Virus record (IMG/VR): IMGVR_UViG_3300010373_000040
Coordinates: 1 to 64,000 of that record
DNA: 64,000 nt
From: a virus
Strand: one strand, 5' to 3'
Shown here: piece by piece, positions 10,150 to 52,914 of the stretch
Layout: every line of letters begins with the position of its first letter
Numbering within the stretch: the first letter of the stretch is position 1
Program-made: the position numbers and the translations under genes
The notes under the pieces: model-generated
Database searches by the model: none
The model's input: the letters and a program-made list of their open reading frames with translations, nothing else
What the model was told of the DNA's origin: nothing

Positions 10150-10157
10150 TATATTTG
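10150..10157 (+). promoter_or_regulatory. -7 promoter element TATATTTG
   Basis: TAnnTTTG directly after a terminator and before ATG 10161; same 8-mer precedes other operons. Confidence 0.6.
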
Positions 10158-10160
10158 TTC

Positions 10161-10811
10161 ATGAGTGTACCTACATTTACTATAGATCTCCAACCTGTTA
10201 ACTTACTGACTCTGAAGAACACAGATTCTGTAAATTTGTATTTTGCTCTGTATCAGCTTAGTGATGATGGAACCACCTTTAATGTGGTAACTATAACCCC
10301 TACCTCTCCTCTAAATTTAGATGGTAGTCTTCCACCTTCTGGAACTTTTCAGATGTACTTGGCTGACAATCTTTATAAAATATTCATTAGTAATGCTCCA
10401 GTAGTAATAGTTAATGTTAATACTGATCCTGGTTACTACATTCTAGCTGATCAGAATATTAAAGCTTGTGAAAGATCTTTAATCTTAAAGAATCTTTGTC
10501 CTCCTACAGGTGGTTGTGATGCCATAGGAGATAGAAAATACATTGAAAAAAGAGTTAAATTCCTGGATTTGAAGTTTGGGTTATACTATATCTATAGTAA
10601 TTGGATTCAACACCAAGCTTATACTATGCTATTTGTTCCTACAAATCAGGAATTACTCTCTATGAGGGATTATCTAACTCAGTTATTAGCTCTTTGTGGT
10701 TGTAGCAATACTGAATGTAAACAGTGTACTGGAGGATATATTAGTGTTAGTAACTGGAGAGCTATAGATCATACTTCTAATAATATTGCACAAGATTGCG
10801 GTTGTAATTAA
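10161..10811 (+). CDS. Cys-rich tail/hub-type structural protein
   Basis: ATG at 10161 preferred to TTG 10155; ends in CGCSNTECKQC..DCGCN; first gene of the tail/fibre operon. Confidence 0.5.
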   Translation: MSVPTFTIDLQPVNLLTLKNTDSVNLYFALYQLSDDGTTFNVVTITPTSPLNLDGSLPPSGTFQMYLADNLYKIFISNAPVVIVNVNTDPGYYILADQNIKACERSLILKNLCPPTGGCDAIGDRKYIEKRVKFLDLKFGLYYIYSNWIQHQAYTMLFVPTNQELLSMRDYLTQLLALCGCSNTECKQCTGGYISVSNWRAIDHTSNNIAQDCGCN

Positions 10812-11293: not shown

Positions 11294-14200
11294 TGTCAGT
11301 AATAGGAGTAAAACAAAATAAAGCTTGGTTTATAGGAGGTAGTAGTAGGCCTCTTAATGCTAGAGGTATGACTGTGGATTTTCAGAATAATGGAGAACCA
11401 GATACCAATGTATTTAGAGATCAAATAGAAAGTTCTTTGCAAAAGAGGGTACTTGATGATTTCCAAGATCAAGCTACATTTACTGATATTAATGTCAGAA
11501 CTACTCCAGATAAGTTTGTTACTCCAGCAAATTTACCAGAAGTTTTAGCTGGTACTACAGGAGTTTCTGTAAATGTTGTAGCAGCTCCTGATGAAACTAC
11601 TCCTTATACCACTTATAATGTAAGTGTAGACAAGGCAGTATACGCTGATATGTTATCTAGAACTAATACTAAAGTTCTAACAGCAGCCAATGCCCCAATA
11701 GTAACAGCAGACCCTGCTTTAGGGAATATTGCTGTAGTAACTCCTGTACAGAATGGAAATGCAATAGAATATCAAGTTAAGGTCTTAGCTCTTCCTGTAC
11801 CTAGCTTAATTATAGATATTACTTATGCAAACCTTGTAACAGCTATAGGAGCTTCTACATTGGCCCCAGGATTCTGGTATAGATTTCCTTACCAGTGTAT
11901 TCATACTATTCCTTATACAACTGACTTAAATACTTCTTCTACCTTAACCATACCTACAGAACATCTGTTGGTTCAAGCTATTAATACCAATACTCTTGAT
12001 AGAACTACTGTAAGAAGTATGGAACATCCTCAAGATATTATTCATTGGAGATGGGAAGATAATGTGGTAGTGACCCCTACAAATGAAGATCCTTTATTTA
12101 CTACTCTTTATCTAGATACTATTGATCCTCTGATGCCAAATGTCTTTACTAAAGGAGCTGTATTATCAACACCTTATACAAGACCTGGGAGAATATACTA
12201 CAGAGAAGATACCATTCAAAGAATTTCTACACCCTATGATTTTAGAGGGGTTGTATACAGAAGGTGGGCTTTAAAGAAAGATGGAAGTGGTAATTATGTG
12301 TATAAAAATACTTTAACTTATACTCCAGGAACTCTTTATAAGCATCATGATGTAATATTAAATGCTGGTGTAAACTGGTTAGTAATATATCCTTTTACAG
12401 CAACAGCTTCTATCAGTAATCATAACTATAATTTGGTTAGTTTAAATGACATGATAGCTTCTGCTACAGGTAATACTCCTCAGTTTATAGCTACCAATTC
12501 TACTAGCTTTGTAATATTTGATACAGATAATCAGTATTTTACTAGCACTAAGGTAGAGATAGATGTGGATACTCCTTATGAAGATCATTTTACTTTCTAT
12601 AATGCTGCAGGAACATTACAAGCATTCAATGTTAAGATTAAAGATTATATTCCAGCATGGATAGAAGCTGTAACATGGGAATTCTATCCTAATGTTGTAT
12701 TTGGTACTCATTTGGGTGGAGGCATAACTCCAATAACTAATGTTACTATTGGTAATTTTAGTTATGATTTAACAATGTTTAATGTTACTTCAGTAACTAT
12801 TTCTGATTATTGTAGAAATATATTTATCAATGGTAGAGCTAGTGGTAATATAGGTGATATAATAGTAGAAGAAAATAATCAGTTTTTACATATAGATCAA
12901 AGTCCAGTAGGAGGAGATTCTGTTACAGTAAAAAGACTTATTTGTAAAATAGGTCTTGGTAATAGAGGTATGATTATTCATGGAGGATCTTATGATATTG
13001 GTAACAATAATAATAGAATAGTTTCCTATAACACTAGCAATCTTGTATTAGGGGACACTAACTATGTTGCTGGTTTTGTTTCAGGTACTCATGAGATAGA
13101 GGATTTTAACTCGTTTGTTACATTTAATTCTTGTGTAACAAATACTATGGGTAATAGAAATAGAAACGTATTTAATATTCTAGGAACCAATACTAAATTT
13201 GGAGATTATAACACTGATATTTCTAGCTTAAAACCTAATCTAATAGAAGGTGTAGGCGTTCCTCATAGTAATAATGTTATAGGAGATTACAATTCTTTAA
13301 TTGTAGTATCTGGTACAAATAATTACTATAACAGAGTGGCTTCTATGAGTATTCCTGATGGCTATACCATAACATCATGTTCATTTGAAAATCTAGCAGG
13401 AGGTATATATTTAGTGAATTCAGGAGCAGGATATAGTTTTACCAGAAGCTCTTTTAAAGATATAACTAATACTATTAGTGTTACTGATACAACTATCACA
13501 GATTCTGAAATATTTAAATGCCCTTCTTTATCACTAACTACAGTTGCCTTAGTTAATAGTAAGCTAAGGATCTGTAGTAATATTACAATATCTTCAGTAT
13601 CTATTACTAGTACATCTTTTGAGAATGTAAATACAGCTACAATAACTTTAGGAATTTCTTCTTCAATAGTGTATTCTAAGTTTGAAAAAATTTCTAATTT
13701 GAACATTACTTATCTAGTACAAGCTATAATAGGGTATTTACAGATTACAAACAATAGTACTCTTAATTTAACTTCTACTCTTACTACAGGAATAACTAAT
13801 GTGATAATAAACCATGTTACTCTTGATAATACTAGCAATATCAATATATTAGAGCTTAACAATACTCTTTCAAAAGTGTATATCTCTAATACAGCAGGAC
13901 TATCAATATACTATGGTAATCTCACTAACTGCAACTTCATTACTACTGTAAATTTAGATTTAGGGAGTATTATACCTTTGTCTTTAGTTCCAGCAAATAG
14001 CAAGGTTACAATATCTGATACAACATTTGAAAATATTGATGGAGTACAAGTACTTCCTACAACAAATGATGGAAGCTCTATCACTAATTTTATTTGGAAT
14101 ATAATATCTACAACATTCAATAATATGAATAGTTGTTTGATTTATCTATTGGCTAAATCTGCAAAAACTAACCAGACAAATGCTTGTGTATTTAGATCTG

Positions 14201-49484: not shown

Positions 49485-49907
49485 ATGATTAAAGCAATAG
49501 TAGATTCAGTAAGTGTTAGTAATGGAGAAGTAACCAAGTTCTCAGTAATAGATGATGCTAGAGGTACTGTAGGAAGCTTTCAGTTGTTTGAGAGTGATGA
49601 GAGTAAATATGGACAGTATAAGGTTGGTGATGAGTTTAGCTTAGAGTTATTCCCTACTGGGTTTGTTATGCCTGAATACAAACATAAAGAACCTACTTCA
49701 GTGGTTGAGCCTATACCAGAGCCTGTAGAAGAACCAACCTTTATAGATAAGGTGAAAGACTTTTTCACCCCAGCTTCTACTACAGAAAGCCCAGAAACAG
49801 TATCTATCACTCCAGAGGTTGTAGTTCCTCCTGTAGAACCAACTCCAGGATTAGATGCTCCTACATTTACAGCACCAACTACTGATAGTCCTGCTCCTAC
49901 AGTATAA
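49485..49907 (+). CDS. Hypothetical protein with Pro/Thr/Glu-rich tail
   Basis: 140 aa. Confidence 0.6.
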   Translation: MIKAIVDSVSVSNGEVTKFSVIDDARGTVGSFQLFESDESKYGQYKVGDEFSLELFPTGFVMPEYKHKEPTSVVEPIPEPVEEPTFIDKVKDFFTPASTTESPETVSITPEVVVPPVEPTPGLDAPTFTAPTTDSPAPTV

Positions 49908-50018
49908 TCAATATACTTATTCTGCATCCCATTAGAACTGCACGCTTAGAATAAGTCTTATGTTAACCCCTCCCTAGATAGTATCTTTGGACCCCATCCT
50001 ATCTCGAATTAGGAAACT

Positions 50019-50058
50019 ATCCCTCTGAGGTTAAAATCTTAGAGGGATTTGTTTGTTT
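50019..50058 (+). terminator. Intrinsic terminator insulating the tRNA operon
   Basis: atccctctgag..cttagagggat followed by ttgtttgttt. Confidence 0.75.
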
Positions 50059-50074
50059 ATATTAATCTATCTAC

Positions 50075-50082
50075 TATATTTG
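50075..50082 (+). promoter_or_regulatory. -7 promoter TATATTTG of the tRNA operon
   Basis: TAnnTTTG 4 nt before the leader ATG. Confidence 0.65.
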
Positions 50083-50086
50083 TTGC

Positions 50087-50161
50087 ATGAACAATTTATC
50101 ACTACATCTTCAACCGCAGCGCACTCCCTTATCTAGGGAAGCAAGTGGTTATTGTGTGTAG
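50087..50161 (+). CDS. Leader peptide MNNLSLHLQPQRTPLSREASGYCV (attenuator)
   Basis: 24 codons between promoter and terminator; run CTA CAT CTT CAA CCG CAG CGC. Confidence 0.65.
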   Translation: MNNLSLHLQPQRTPLSREASGYCV

Positions 50162-50186
50162 TAGTAAAAAAGCTCCAACATTATTT

Positions 50187-50221
50187 ATCCCCTTGCTGAG
50201 AAGTTAGGGGATTTCTGTTTT
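50187..50221 (+). terminator. Attenuator terminator upstream of the tRNAs
   Basis: atcccct-tgctgagaagtt-aggggat followed by ttctgtttt. Confidence 0.7.
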
Positions 50222-50229
50222 ATATACAT

Positions 50230-50303
50230 ATAGTGGGATAACGGTCAGGTTGTTTACCTGCCTTGGAAGCAGGAGGTCGAGGGTTCAAATCCCTCCCACT
50301 ATA
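50230..50303 (+). tRNA. tRNA-Pro(UGG), atypical D arm
   Basis: Anticodon arm CCTGC-CTTGGAA-GCAGG; T arm GAGGG-TTCAAAT-CCCTC; acceptor ATAGTGG/CCACTAT. Confidence 0.7.
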
Positions 50304-50379
50304 CGACACAGGTTTTACGTACTGTCACCTGCCGAGAAACAAAAAAGACAACGATACAGTTAGGGAGAGACCTAAACAT

Positions 50380-50451
50380 TTTCCTGTATGCTAATTGGCA
50401 GGCAATCTGACTTTGACTCAGATGGTACAAGTTCGAATCTTGTCGGGAAAA
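50380..50451 (+). tRNA. tRNA-Gln(UUG)
   Basis: TTTCCTG/CGGGAAA acceptor; TCTGA-CTTTGAC-TCAGA; ACAAG-TTCGAAT-CTTGT. Confidence 0.88.
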
Positions 50452-50453
50452 CT

Positions 50454-50526
50454 GTAGAGTTGCGCTAAGTGGTTAAGCGGACTGCCTGTGAAGCAGTTTA
50501 TATGAGTTCGAGCCTCATACTCTACC
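50454..50526 (+). tRNA. tRNA-His(GUG)
   Basis: GTAGAGT/ACTCTAC acceptor, C73; ACTGC-CTGTGAA-GCAGT; ATGAG-TTCGAGC-CTCAT. Confidence 0.88.
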
Positions 50527-50529
50527 CAC

Positions 50530-50601
50530 ATCTCTGTAGATCAATGAATAGATCAAGTAGCTACGAACTACTAGATAGAGGTTTGAATCCTCTCGGAGAT
50601 A
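50530..50601 (+). tRNA. tRNA-Arg(ACG)
   Basis: ATCTCTG/CGGAGAT acceptor; AGTAG-CTACGAA-CTACT; AGAGG-TTTGAAT-CCTCT. Confidence 0.85.
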
Positions 50602-50604
50602 CCT

Positions 50605-50678
50605 GCCCAATTGGTGGAATTGGTAGACACACAGGTCTTAGAAACCTGTTTTTATAGGTTCGATTCCTATATTGGGTA
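50605..50678 (+). tRNA. tRNA-Leu(UAG) lacking a long variable arm
   Basis: GCCCAAT/ATTGGGT acceptor, A73; Leu-type D arm GTGGAATTGGTAGACAC; CAGGT-CTTAGAA-ACCTG; variable loop TTTTT. Confidence 0.85.
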
Positions 50679-50688
50679 CTTTAAAATT

Positions 50689-50722
50689 AAAGGTATGTTC
50701 TCTTGTGAGTATGCCTTTTTTT
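50689..50722 (+). terminator. Terminator closing the tRNA operon
   Basis: aaaggtatgttc..gagtatgccttttttt. Confidence 0.75.
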
Positions 50723-50801
50723 ATTTACTATTGTACATAATCACATATAGGTAAACACCTAAGTACATATATGTGAATAACACCTAAACACTAAACTTAT
50801 T

Positions 50802-51137
50802 ATGGAAACACTAATGACTTTTGGAGAAGCTCTTGAACTTGTTAAACAAGGGAAATTGATTTCTAGACAAGGTTGGAATGGTAAAGGTATGTTCATCTTC
50901 CAAAGACCTGAAGACAGCATTCACATCAGTACTGTAATTACTCAAGTAAAATCGCTCCCTGCTGCAGTAAAGAGCTTTTATACTTCTAGAGTATGGGCTG
51001 ATTCTGAGAACCAGATGGTTAAATTCACTCCATACTTGTGTATGAAAGCTGCTGATGATAGCATTGTAAATGGTTGGTTAGCATCTCAGACTGATATGTT
51101 GGCTAATGATTGGTCTGAGTTCAGCTACGGAGTATAA
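50802..51137 (+). CDS. tad2: DUF2829 / Thoeris anti-defence 2 (Tad2)-family sponge protein
   Basis: MTFGEAL..K.G..R.GWNGKGMF...YLCMK..GWLASQTDMLANDW signature. Confidence 0.85.
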   Translation: METLMTFGEALELVKQGKLISRQGWNGKGMFIFQRPEDSIHISTVITQVKSLPAAVKSFYTSRVWADSENQMVKFTPYLCMKAADDSIVNGWLASQTDMLANDWSEFSYGV

Positions 51138-51216
51138 ACATTTACCGTATGATGGCTAAGGAGATCTTGGTCTGGGCCTGTAAACCTCATGAAACAAAGG
51201 TAATTTTAACACTAGA

Positions 51217-52152: not shown

Positions 52153-52360
52153 CCTTCCAGAGGCTATAGTATCGAGGATTCAGAAAGCTAGAGGTTTAGC
52201 AACTGAATCCTCTTTATCTTTGCAGAAACAAAGGTTAGAGATTTGTGATAAGTGTCCTGAGAAGAAAATGATAGGGACTGAGGTTTGTGGCCTCTGTGGC
52301 TGTTTTTTGCAGCTCAAGACATTAGTAGAAGATGAACATTGTCAAATTAAGAAATGGTAG
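52139..52360 (+). CDS. Small Cys-rich protein
   Basis: RLEICDKC..VCGLCGCFL..KT..EHC..KW; start moved to MSLSNLP. Confidence 0.65.
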   Translation: MSLSNLPEAIVSRIQKARGLATESSLSLQKQRLEICDKCPEKKMIGTEVCGLCGCFLQLKTLVEDEHCQIKKW

Positions 52361-52914
52361 ATATAGAAGAAATTACTATAGACAAGCTTATAAACGAATA
52401 TGGAGGAATTCATATTAGAGGGTATGAAGATTATATAGTCCTTCCGACAAGTGAAATATTTTCTATAAAGTTCAATACTATAAGAAAATTAGTTCCTCAG
52501 ATATTACATAAAAATGGAAAACCTTCGGCCTATAGACAAATTGTGGTAAGACAGCAGGGCAAAGACCCTGCCAGGAGGTTGATTCACAGAATTGTAGCAG
52601 AGACATTCATACCTAATCCAGAAAACAAACCTCAAGTGAATCACAAAGATGGTAATGGGTCTAATAACCATGTTGACAACTTAGAGTGGTGTACAGGTCA
52701 TGAAAATATGGCTCATAGCTTCAGAATATTAAAAAGAAGAATGGCTGTAGGAGAAAAAGTACATTTAAGTAAACTTACAGAAGAAGAGGTTATAATGATA
52801 CGAAAAATATATCCAAAGGGACATGCTACACAACAAGAGTTAGCCAAAATATTCAATTGTCATCCAACAACAATATATTCTGTTTTAAGTTACATAACAT
52901 GGAAACATATTTAA
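52354..52914 (+). CDS. HNH homing endonuclease with C-terminal HTH
   Basis: IHRIVAETFIPNPENKPQVNHKDG..NNHVDNLEWCT..EN..H; SKLT..QQELAK.F. Confidence 0.9.
   Translation: MVDIEEITIDKLINEYGGIHIRGYEDYIVLPTSEIFSIKFNTIRKLVPQILHKNGKPSAYRQIVVRQQGKDPARRLIHRIVAETFIPNPENKPQVNHKDGNGSNNHVDNLEWCTGHENMAHSFRILKRRMAVGEKVHLSKLTEEEVIMIRKIYPKGHATQQELAKIFNCHPTTIYSVLSYITWKHI

Follow-up and report, generated by a model that had tools for sequence, protein, structure and literature searches.

Why would a phage place a transcription terminator 8 nucleotides (nt) ahead of the only tRNA genes in its genome? The locus that raises this question lies in IMG/VR virus record IMGVR_UViG_3300010373_000040, which comprises 85,239 bp and whose first 64 kb (64,000 nt) are referred to below as the window. 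Here, five tRNA genes (50230-50679), the sole tRNAs of the entire genome, are preceded by a predicted promoter, an open reading frame (ORF) of 24 codons and a hairpin followed by a U tract. Judging from the sequence and from modelled folds, we think it probable that 50048-50725 is a single transcription unit in which a ribosome-mediated (leader-peptide) attenuator gates the five tRNA genes. The short ORF contains a run of codons that name the five tRNAs, the leader RNA has alternative folds in silico, and the design recurs in other phages together with a match between the leader codons and the tRNAs behind them. A preliminary description of this DNA had listed a promoter box, the 24-codon ORF, a terminator, five tRNAs and a closing terminator, and all of these are present where it had placed them (Table 1).

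Putative control codons and predicted alternative folds at the tRNA locus

The run of codons starting with C (CNN) that the preliminary description had singled out is indeed found at codons 6-12 of the leader ORF, and in these seven consecutive codons every one of the five tRNAs is represented by one codon or more. It was also right in calling CCG and CGC rare in a CpG-poor genome, as they account for 13 and 2, respectively, of 23,207 codons. CpG depletion is extreme in this phage, with 349 CG dinucleotides in 85 kb (observed/expected 0.14), and the GC, CC and GG dinucleotides are near 1 in the same genome. CNN codons are limited to Leu, Pro, His, Gln and Arg, and what is truly coincidental is that the five tRNAs make up the complete CNN quadrant and are preceded by a CNN run in their leader. 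Runs of at least seven codons with C in period 3 occur 12 times on the two genome strands, two of them covering all five amino acids, and by chance the 150 nt that precede the tRNA cluster would contain approximately 0.002 such runs on the strand of the tRNAs. This expectation is low, and alone it is not convincing for a finding picked from a very large scan, in which a coincidence of this size is bound to appear somewhere. Under the alternative that this suggests, the ORF and its codon run are there by chance, the hairpin is an ordinary leaky terminator or insulator, and the tRNAs are made by unregulated read-through. Consistent with this alternative, the minus strand at 51202 also has, by chance, the motif TAnnTTTG followed after 4 nt by an ATG and a short ORF.

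The folding of the leader RNA was examined with and without its 5' part. In the minimum-energy fold, the free leader forms one long hairpin (50095-50168, hairpin 1) plus the terminator (z -2.97). Folding of 50087-50208, which contains hairpin 1, gives -28.5 kcal/mol (z -2.2), and the isolated terminator hairpin 50187-50212 gives -14.1 kcal/mol (z -3.65). The pairings AACCGC/GTGGTT, ACTACA/TGTAGT and TCCCT/AGGGA, given in the preliminary description as one hairpin, are all part of hairpin 1, and the antiterminator strand 50140-50150 can instead pair with 50187-50197, the 5' arm of the terminator, where the preliminary description had proposed 50140-48 with 50189-97. Indeed, the minimum-energy fold of 50126-50224, a fragment shortened at its 5' end as a stand-in for a leader with a ribosome on the CNN run, joins 50140-47 to 50190-97 at the expense of the terminator. 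The folds thus support, in silico, a three-state switch with the trp/his-type geometry that had been suggested for this leader: the free leader shows the terminator and hairpin 1, in which 50140-50150 is sequestered, the masked leader shows the antiterminator, and a ribosome near the stop codon would cover the antiterminator. A sliding ribosome mask refines this picture. With the 3' arm of the terminator still untranscribed, the antiterminator is present as long as the A site has not passed about codon 14, and it vanishes when the ribosome is near the stop codon. The antiterminator duplex of the window has an energy of -10.1 kcal/mol, compared with -6.5 +/- 1.8 kcal/mol in dinucleotide shuffles (p = 0.05), a marginal difference that the chance explanation could also accommodate. 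We therefore regard the predicted geometry as right and the energetics of this single locus as moderately persuasive.

In terms of sequence, the locus has what is expected of an attenuator, namely a predicted promoter with a short ORF, control codons that match the products, and a predicted terminator before the genes. In the folds, it has an antiterminator that is masked by a ribosome at the stop codon and left free by one at the control codons, as well as a hairpin between regions 1 and 2.

Table 1. Predicted features of the tRNA unit and its upstream border, in window coordinates.
Feature	Coordinates	Strand	Details
Strong terminator closing the upstream unit	50019-50058	+	13-bp stem, T-rich tail; terminator scan (50019-50048); fold -25.0 kcal/mol
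Bacteroidota-type promoter (predicted)	50048-50082	+	TTTG repeats at 50048-50055 (-33-like), 19 nt before the -7 box
-7 box TATATTTG	50075-50082	+	Sequence; consensus as given in the text of PMC6847099
Leader ORF, 24 codons and TAG stop	50087-50161	+	Encodes MNNLSLHLQPQRTPLSREASGYCV; ORF list
Sensor run, codons 6-12	50102-50122	+	CTA CAT CTT CAA CCG CAG CGC (L H L Q P Q R)
Hairpin 1 (region 1:2)	50095-50168	+	5' arm overlaps the sensor codons; 3' arm holds the antiterminator strand
Antiterminator strand AGCAAGUGGUU, codons 18-22	50140-50150	+	Ends 10 nt before the stop codon
Intrinsic terminator (putative attenuator)	50187-50221	+	Hairpin 50187-50212; U tract UUCUGUUUU at 50213-50221
tRNA-Pro (TGG)	50230-50304	+	A37
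tRNA-Gln (TTG)	50380-50452	+	A37
tRNA-His (GTG)	50454-50527	+	A37
tRNA-Arg (ACG)	50530-50603	+	A37
tRNA with anticodon TAG (Leu by anticodon)	50605-50679	+	75 nt; A37, A73
Terminator closing the tRNA unit	50689-50725	+	Terminator scan (50689-50718)

The terminator at 50019-50058 is predicted to isolate the tRNA unit from upstream read-through. A second -7 box was sought between 50083 and the tRNAs, and none was found. From the end of the U tract to tRNA-Pro there are 8 nt (17 nt from the end of the stem, as counted by script). The tRNAs would then be transcribable solely through the hairpin at 50187-50212, because a terminator lies upstream, there is one -7 box, and the gap behind the U tract measures 8 nt. 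An unregulated terminator so close to the only genes of a promoter makes little sense, which argues against the chance explanation.

The promoter motif TAnnTTTG is enriched in intergenic DNA of this genome, where 22 of its 112 matches lie within 8.3% of the sequence. In Flavobacterium johnsoniae, the -7 element is described as located at -12 to -5, mostly 4 or 5 nt from the start site (PMC6847099). As the distance from the -7 box to the A of the ATG (50087) is 4 nt in the window, the transcript probably starts at this A and would hence be a leaderless mRNA. For F. psychrophilum, the text of PMC9723704 gives leaderless mRNAs as 5.5% of the mapped mRNAs, and it mentions strong clues for leader-peptide attenuation before amino-acid operons. 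An attenuator of the proposed kind is thus plausible in the host, since flavobacteria are reported there to have both leader-peptide attenuators and leaderless mRNAs (PMC9723704).

Two further observations concern the borders and the interior of the unit. A second -7-like box, TATCTTTG, is located at 49982 and is followed by approximately 60 nt without an ATG, ending in the terminator 50019-50048; judged by its sequence, 49982-50058 could encode a small RNA directly in front of the tRNA unit. The 75-nt spacer between tRNA-Pro and tRNA-Gln (50305-50379) has no match in Rfam, and a spacer of 59 nt is found at the same position in another phage with these five tRNAs (L231, see below).

Leaders with matching codons in front of other tRNA blocks

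If leader codons report on the tRNAs that they control, the two should vary together among phages, and the preliminary description had suggested looking for such co-variation. We collected loci from IMG/VR by searching with the anticodon arm of the window tRNA-Pro (77 loci) and of its tRNA-Leu (3 loci). A leader was accepted if a hairpin with a T run was present at most 75 nt before a tRNA with an upstream spacer of at least 110 nt. Its ORF was taken as the longest ATG ORF of 10-45 codons with the stop 5-60 nt before the stem, TAHHTTTG was required at most 60 nt before the ATG, and each distinct peptide was counted once. These selection rules ignore tRNA identity. An earlier ORF rule, the longest ATG ORF ending before the stem, was discarded, as it chose the tails of upstream genes or wrong frames in several loci. 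Among 237 starts of arrays or sub-arrays in all loci collected up to this point, 48 had a hairpin and 15 distinct leaders passed all rules, the window included.

In these leaders, the design of the window recurs before tRNA blocks: a -7 box of Bacteroidota type is followed by a short ORF with an antiterminator close to its stop codon, by a terminator and, 6-22 nt further on, by a tRNA. The distance from stop codon to stem is 11-36 nt in all 15 leaders (25 nt in the window), the terminator lies at most 22 nt from the tRNA in 13 of them, and a -7 box is positioned 4-7 nt before the ATG in seven. By reading, we distinguish at least six or seven distinct leader types in the set.

There is good agreement between the leaders and the tRNAs behind them. 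The proportion of leader residues with a tRNA in the block is 0.343 when each leader is compared with its own block and 0.16 for non-cognate blocks, and 0 of 100,000 permutations equalled this (n = 15), a figure that overstates the number of independent events because related leaders are not independent. Matching at the level of codons gave the same permutation outcome (0.317 cognate, 0.14 non-cognate), and again 0 of 100,000 permutations was obtained when the window and two near-duplicates were dropped (n = 12). The agreement is specific to the frame of the ORF, in which the value is 0.343 compared with 0.11-0.17 in the five other frames (Wilcoxon p <= 7e-4 each). The suggested co-variation of leader codons with tRNA content is thus borne out by the 15 leaders, and, as described below, by a second set with one rule relaxed. 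The antiterminator is equally general: in 15 of 15 leaders, 8-10 nt near the 3' end of the ORF can pair with the 5' arm of the terminator, and this pairing is lost with a ribosome near the stop codon. The predicted pairing exceeds that of dinucleotide shuffles in 12 of the 15 (Fisher 8e-14).

Individual loci illustrate how closely the peptides follow the tRNAs. Arrays that open with tRNA-Pro and have a Bacteroidota-type -7 box show a short ORF together with a GC hairpin and its T run directly before the tRNA. The leader MKNLIHIQPQPQQHPQMSEWGNYA precedes Pro, His and Gln, and MITIQHIEQSQPEEILRRPPVCT precedes Pro, Met, His, Glu and Gln. In L131, MKKKLHTLVLLQPHLPRGHNKERYMF is followed by Pro, His, Arg, Leu-TAA, Leu-TAG and Gln, the sole six tRNAs of an 86-kb record, and in L139 a leader beginning MKQYLRPSQQHSLPSYLGG is followed by an array of 22 tRNAs that opens with Pro, Gln, His, Arg-ACG and Leu-TAG, in the order of the window. 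Sub-arrays that begin with other tRNAs have leaders of their own: MMKQYSYSSLYLPDYSG is found before Leu, Leu, Ser and Tyr, a leader beginning MKVTFTQRPEQHTPCFTW before Glu, Pro, Cys, Phe, Thr, Arg and Gln, and one containing YYYGKKSYKK before Lys, Tyr and Lys.

Of particular relevance is L231, where TATATTTG is followed after 4 nt by the ATG of the leader MNTKKLHTLRPEQPKLYLGGIGV, by a terminator, and by Pro, Gln, His, Leu-TAG and Arg-ACG. The codons of this leader include CAT, CTA, CGT, CCT, CAA and CCG, and its antiterminator ends 10 nt before the stop codon, as in the window. The 64-kb record of L231 has no match to the large terminase (TerL) of the window phage, and by this comparison the two phages appear to be unrelated, despite having the same five tRNAs. 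The preliminary description had named loci that keep the tRNAs and lose the ORF or its codon run as evidence against an attenuator; L231, L131 and L139 all retain a matching leader ORF. Outside the rule-chosen sets, a further case comes from L056, a crAss-like TerL relative (39% identity) that has 22 tRNAs upstream of TerL, as in the window. The first leader of L056 names all 12 tRNAs of its block, and the second, which has a GTG start, names five of the six amino acids of the second block, with Cys missing.

A cultured phage, Tenacibaculum phage Gundel_1, likewise outside these sets, contains two units of this design. In one of them, TATATTTG lies 4 nt before the ATG of MKTNNLHIQQNNLPVFLEGFLYM, and a terminator and then Pro, Gln, Met, Asn and Leu-TAG follow; tRNA-Pro is separated from the terminator by an HNH endonuclease gene that extends into the beginning of the tRNA (L236 1985-2491). 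Behind the other, leader A, there are two tRNA-like stretches, neither of which is called by ARAGORN, and one of which reaches 27.8 bits in Rfam, below the threshold of 29 bits. The anticodons of these two stretches, as well as the Cys reading of a tRNA labelled 'Undet', were assigned by eye.

The recurrence of block-specific codons in many phages, in the ORF frame and beyond every permutation of the 15-leader set, together with L231, where the same five tRNAs are accompanied by a matching leader and an antiterminator at the same offset, makes the chance explanation unlikely in our view. A different alternative is that the leader is an RNA element that acts independently of translation, for instance in the processing or stability of the tRNA precursor or by T-box-like sensing, with the open frame as a by-product. 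The leader is highly structured (z -2.97), as such an element would be, and in L110 and L118 the conserved peptide tails coincide with antiterminator nucleotides, so that part of the peptide conservation is RNA conservation. An RNA element of this kind would, however, not account for a match to the tRNA set that is confined to the ORF frame and spans up to 12 amino acids per leader, nor for start and stop codons at a fixed geometry relative to the antiterminator. Moreover, the relatives L110 and L118 differ by an in-frame indel of 6 nt, and an Rfam search over 49700-51000 returned the tRNAs and chance-level matches only, with no T-box even at E <= 10. We consider this alternative quite unlikely. 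In another pair of relatives, L119 and L174, matching changes are seen in the 5' arm and 3' arm of the terminator and in the antiterminator.

It could also be argued that the small ORF encodes a functional micro-protein with a terminator of its own, and that its proximity to tRNAs is incidental. Peptides of 22-24 residues occur elsewhere, and the peptides of the window and of L110 share an M-x-N-L start, H-x-Q-P-Q, and G-x-Y near the end. Across the family, however, the peptides have little in common apart from residues that correspond to the tRNAs behind them, the tail of the peptide is accounted for by the antiterminator RNA, and between the terminator and tRNA-Pro there is no room for a promoter that would serve the tRNAs. 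A micro-protein thus seems very improbable as the reason for the arrangement.

A replication set was assembled from 59 loci found with the anticodon arms of tRNA-Arg and tRNA-Gln. When the promoter rule is left out, 11 leaders of this set give a weaker replication, with a match of 0.40 for cognate and 0.31 for non-cognate blocks, and 127 of 100,000 permutations reach this value. L199 and L231 are the two leaders of this set that pass all rules, and that of L199 holds all eight amino acids of its block.

Close relatives of the window leader itself were sought in several ways. A blastn search with 49900-50800 against 50,697 phage records gave no match, the exact 21-nt codon run was not found in IMG/VR, and when the leader, spacer and trailer were compared by blastn with every locus retrieved, the matches were at chance level only. 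To the other members of the set, the window leader has no nucleotide match and a loose peptide resemblance only. It would thus join the class of codon-matched leaders by design and not by demonstrable descent.

Besides the non-independence of related leaders, several points weigh against an attenuator at this locus and must be set against the evidence above. The selection rules are partly post hoc, as the stop-to-stem rule was settled after the first examples had been viewed, and when all rules were applied to the replication set, two of 197 starts passed and 49,752 of 100,000 permutations did as well with just these two leaders. The ORF chosen by the rules in L129 (at 584) is unmatched to its block (0.06), and three other leaders score 0.10-0.20, for at least two of which a long gap truncates the block as defined. 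Only 8 of the 15 leaders lose the terminator at full equilibrium; in the window, the predicted antiterminator is modest, and the sliding mask displaces the terminator at equilibrium for A-site codons 7-9 only. The window leader also holds codons that the five tRNAs are unable to decode (TTA twice, AGG, AAC/AAT), and at the codon level just 8 of its 23 codons are readable by them. The simple terminator scan, with its loop limit of 3-8, omitted the hairpin at 50187-50212, a point that also favours the chance explanation, and the U tract is interrupted. The start site is uncertain, as a spacing of 5 nt from the -7 box would move it to 50088 and remove the ATG from the transcript. For the exact leader, the searches above gave no close homologue by which to judge its conservation. 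Lastly, the support is all computational: no RNA run is listed among the sequencing runs that contain the locus.

A proposed ribosome-gated switch and its relation to known systems

From these data we infer the following course of events, including the start site, translation of the leader, termination, read-through and the cause of slow decoding. Host RNA polymerase would start at or next to the A of the ATG, and a ribosome would follow on the leaderless mRNA. A fast ribosome would reach the stop codon and cover 50140-50150, allowing the hairpin 50187-50212 to form and to end transcription 8 nt before tRNA-Pro. Slow decoding of Leu-CUN, His, Gln, Pro or Arg-CGN codons would instead hold the ribosome in the CNN run, where it would cover region 1 and leave 50140-50150 free; the antiterminator would then pair with the terminator's 5' arm, letting the polymerase continue into the five tRNA genes. 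On a leader that is not translated, hairpin 1 would sequester the antiterminator, and termination would be expected to result. The switch would constitute a negative, self-limiting feedback on the supply of CNN-reading tRNAs, because its products are the very tRNAs that relieve the stall.

Leader-peptide attenuators are known from trpL, hisL, leuL and pheL, and multivalent ones from thrL and ilvL. The amino-acid operon attenuators resemble the window in having a promoter, an ORF with control codons, a 1:2 hairpin, a 2:3 antiterminator and a 3:4 terminator. As proposed here, stalling at the control codons leads to read-through in these operons, and the thr and ilv leaders are a precedent for sensing several amino acids. 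Unlike them, the window unit would gate tRNAs and not enzymes, with a product that relieves the stall, and would sense decoding capacity and not amino-acid supply. It would also differ in sensing five codon families, in being probably leaderless and in being borne by a phage. T-boxes provide another comparison. A T-box recognises uncharged tRNA by direct binding, in which one specifier codon takes part, and acts independently of translation. Like the proposed switch, it is a leader RNA that selects a terminator or an antiterminator according to the state of tRNA, and it regulates genes of the translation apparatus; unlike a T-box, the window has an ORF with start, stop and many codons and, as described above, no T-box match in Rfam.

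Among the published systems that we found, the nearest to a conditional accessory tRNA array is the cryptic trn operon of Anabaena sp. PCC 7120, which is described as induced under translational stress (PMC8421152, PMC10272220). In the proposal for the window, as in the account of the trn operon, an accessory tRNA array would be off until translation is impaired; the trn operon differs in that it is bacterial, plasmid-borne and under the control of a protein repressor, TrcR (PMC10272220). A word search of the text of PMC8421152 for attenuat-, leader and terminator found no occurrence. The preliminary description knew of no phage tRNA operon regulated by a leader peptide, and our full-text search, in a library that covers a minority of subscription journals, likewise found no report of leader-peptide attenuation of tRNA genes, either phage or cellular. 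For the E. coli tRNA-Phe genes, at which attenuation seemed possible, the best 12 of 142 papers contained nothing relevant.

Within the literature searched, leader-peptide attenuation, a textbook mechanism, is described for amino-acid operons and for a handful of translation genes, and its use for tRNA genes would be new. Sensor and product would be part of one process, with ribosomes probing codons and the switch releasing the tRNAs that read those codons. If correct, this would explain how phages dose accessory tRNAs and why tRNA arrays are split into blocks, each with a small ORF of its own. Sequences would then reveal the codons whose decoding in the host a phage treats as limiting, and the leaders would offer small sensors of translation speed, each specific for certain codons, for use in Bacteroidota, where genetic tools are few. 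The window locus is the most compact example, with one leader, five tRNAs and one codon quadrant, and the presence of the same design in the cultured phage Gundel_1 makes the idea directly testable.

The phage, its tRNAs and a possible role in counter-defence

The ends of the record share a 123-bp overlap, so the assembly closes as a circle, and the genome has a G+C content of 33.8%. Matches to PHROG families identify the large terminase (6681), the portal (6547) and the major head protein (11589), and very long ORFs of 1,982, 1,240 and 1,138 codons are present. The nearest TerL relatives are found on contigs of approximately 82-92 kb, of which many derive from metagenomes, marine ones among them. 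From the PHROG matches, the contigs of the terminase relatives and the very long ORFs, we infer a crAss-like phage with a Bacteroidota host. TerL relatives closer than those of the anchored loci described below exist at 84%, 69%, 68% and 66% identity, mostly from Logan assemblies. The window stretch itself is contained in two DNA runs from soil metagenomes, which may both be its source and in which the contigs are identical to it, with zero variants. As a separate observation on the terminases, the TerL relatives P0004, P0007, P0009, P0015 and P0016 are approximately 1,050 residues long and have Pfam domains of inteins or homing endonucleases (PF14528, PF14890), and the terminase ORF of G008 has 1,099 residues and matches in separated segments.

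By sequence comparison, the tRNA cluster is an accessory module and not a conserved part of this phage lineage, because most TerL-anchored loci lack tRNAs. None of the seven TerL-anchored loci from IMG/VR has a tRNA within reach (one of the contigs carries Arg-TCT and Leu-TAA elsewhere), a complete relative with 40% identity in TerL is devoid of tRNAs, and among TerL-anchored metagenome loci tRNAs were found in 3 of 80 (L056, L079, L082).

The five tRNAs share the anticodon loop C32-U33-NNG-A37. Bacterial Pro-UGG and Leu-UAG tRNAs carry 1-methylguanosine at position 37 (m1G37), and A37 is thus unusual in these two; the arm of tRNA-Pro with A37 was found in 77 IMG/VR stretches. The tRNA with anticodon TAG has no long variable arm, which is typically present in bacterial tRNA-Leu, and it has A73 and a G1-U72 pair. 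These features make the amino acid that it accepts uncertain. The presence of tRNA-Arg(ACG) is also peculiar. It is not explained by compensation for codon usage, since CGN codons make up 31 of the 23,207 codons in 70 long ORFs, and AGA/AGG account for 96% of the Arg codons.

The tRNAs of phages T5 and T4 replace host tRNAs that have been cut by anticodon nucleases. To our knowledge, the tRNA genes of these phages are constitutive or temporally programmed and not under a translation-sensing switch. A purpose that the window unit may share with them is to restore decoding when host tRNAs are damaged, and such damage as its trigger is a guess. Along these lines, the unit could be an inducible counter-defence module, in which the replacement set would be turned on when host tRNAs of the CNN quadrant, which share G36, are cut, unmodified or otherwise disabled; we put this forward tentatively and regard it as rather doubtful. 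The common C32-U33-NNG-A37 loop may render the replacement tRNAs insensitive to such an attack or independent of host methylation at position 37. Some features hint at counter-defence and prove nothing: few CGN codons are used and yet tRNA-Arg(ACG) is carried and sensed, the A37 loop is shared by all five tRNAs, a Tad2-like gene is a neighbour, the module is found in an unrelated phage, and HNH genes lie beside the modules. A feedback loop that senses tRNA supply explains the anatomy equally well as a nuclease trigger.

The gene directly downstream of the unit (50802-51137) is Tad2-like (Thoeris anti-defense 2, PF11195; E 2e-24, 86.4 bits), and a DUF2829 gene is located approximately 1 kb upstream of the Gundel_1 tRNA arrays. 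Genes for HNH endonucleases adjoin tRNA modules in the window (52354-52914) as well as in Gundel_1. Homing endonucleases are said to move tRNA arrays in T4 (PMC8421152), and they could be a possible means for leader-plus-tRNA modules to spread between unrelated phages.

Some minor observations were made along the way. At 10150-10811 of the window, a terminator is followed by TATATTTG, 3 nt and the ATG of a 216-codon ORF (at 10161), possibly a leaderless protein gene, with a weak, sub-threshold match to a methyltransferase family. In L176 (G009; 11572-14044), an array of 22 tRNAs is ordered roughly by the first letter of the codon: Pro, Gln, His, Arg and Leu (CNN) are followed by Leu-UUR, Ser and Ser, by Glu, Ala and Asp, by Asn, Thr, Arg-AGR, Met, Lys, Ile and Met, and by Phe, Val, Gly and Cys. 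The set of five tRNAs in the window corresponds to the first block of this array. Some arrays also include tRNAs with the amber-reading anticodon CTA (L106 6687, L113 5970, L167 1250), which hints at reassignment of a stop codon in those phages.

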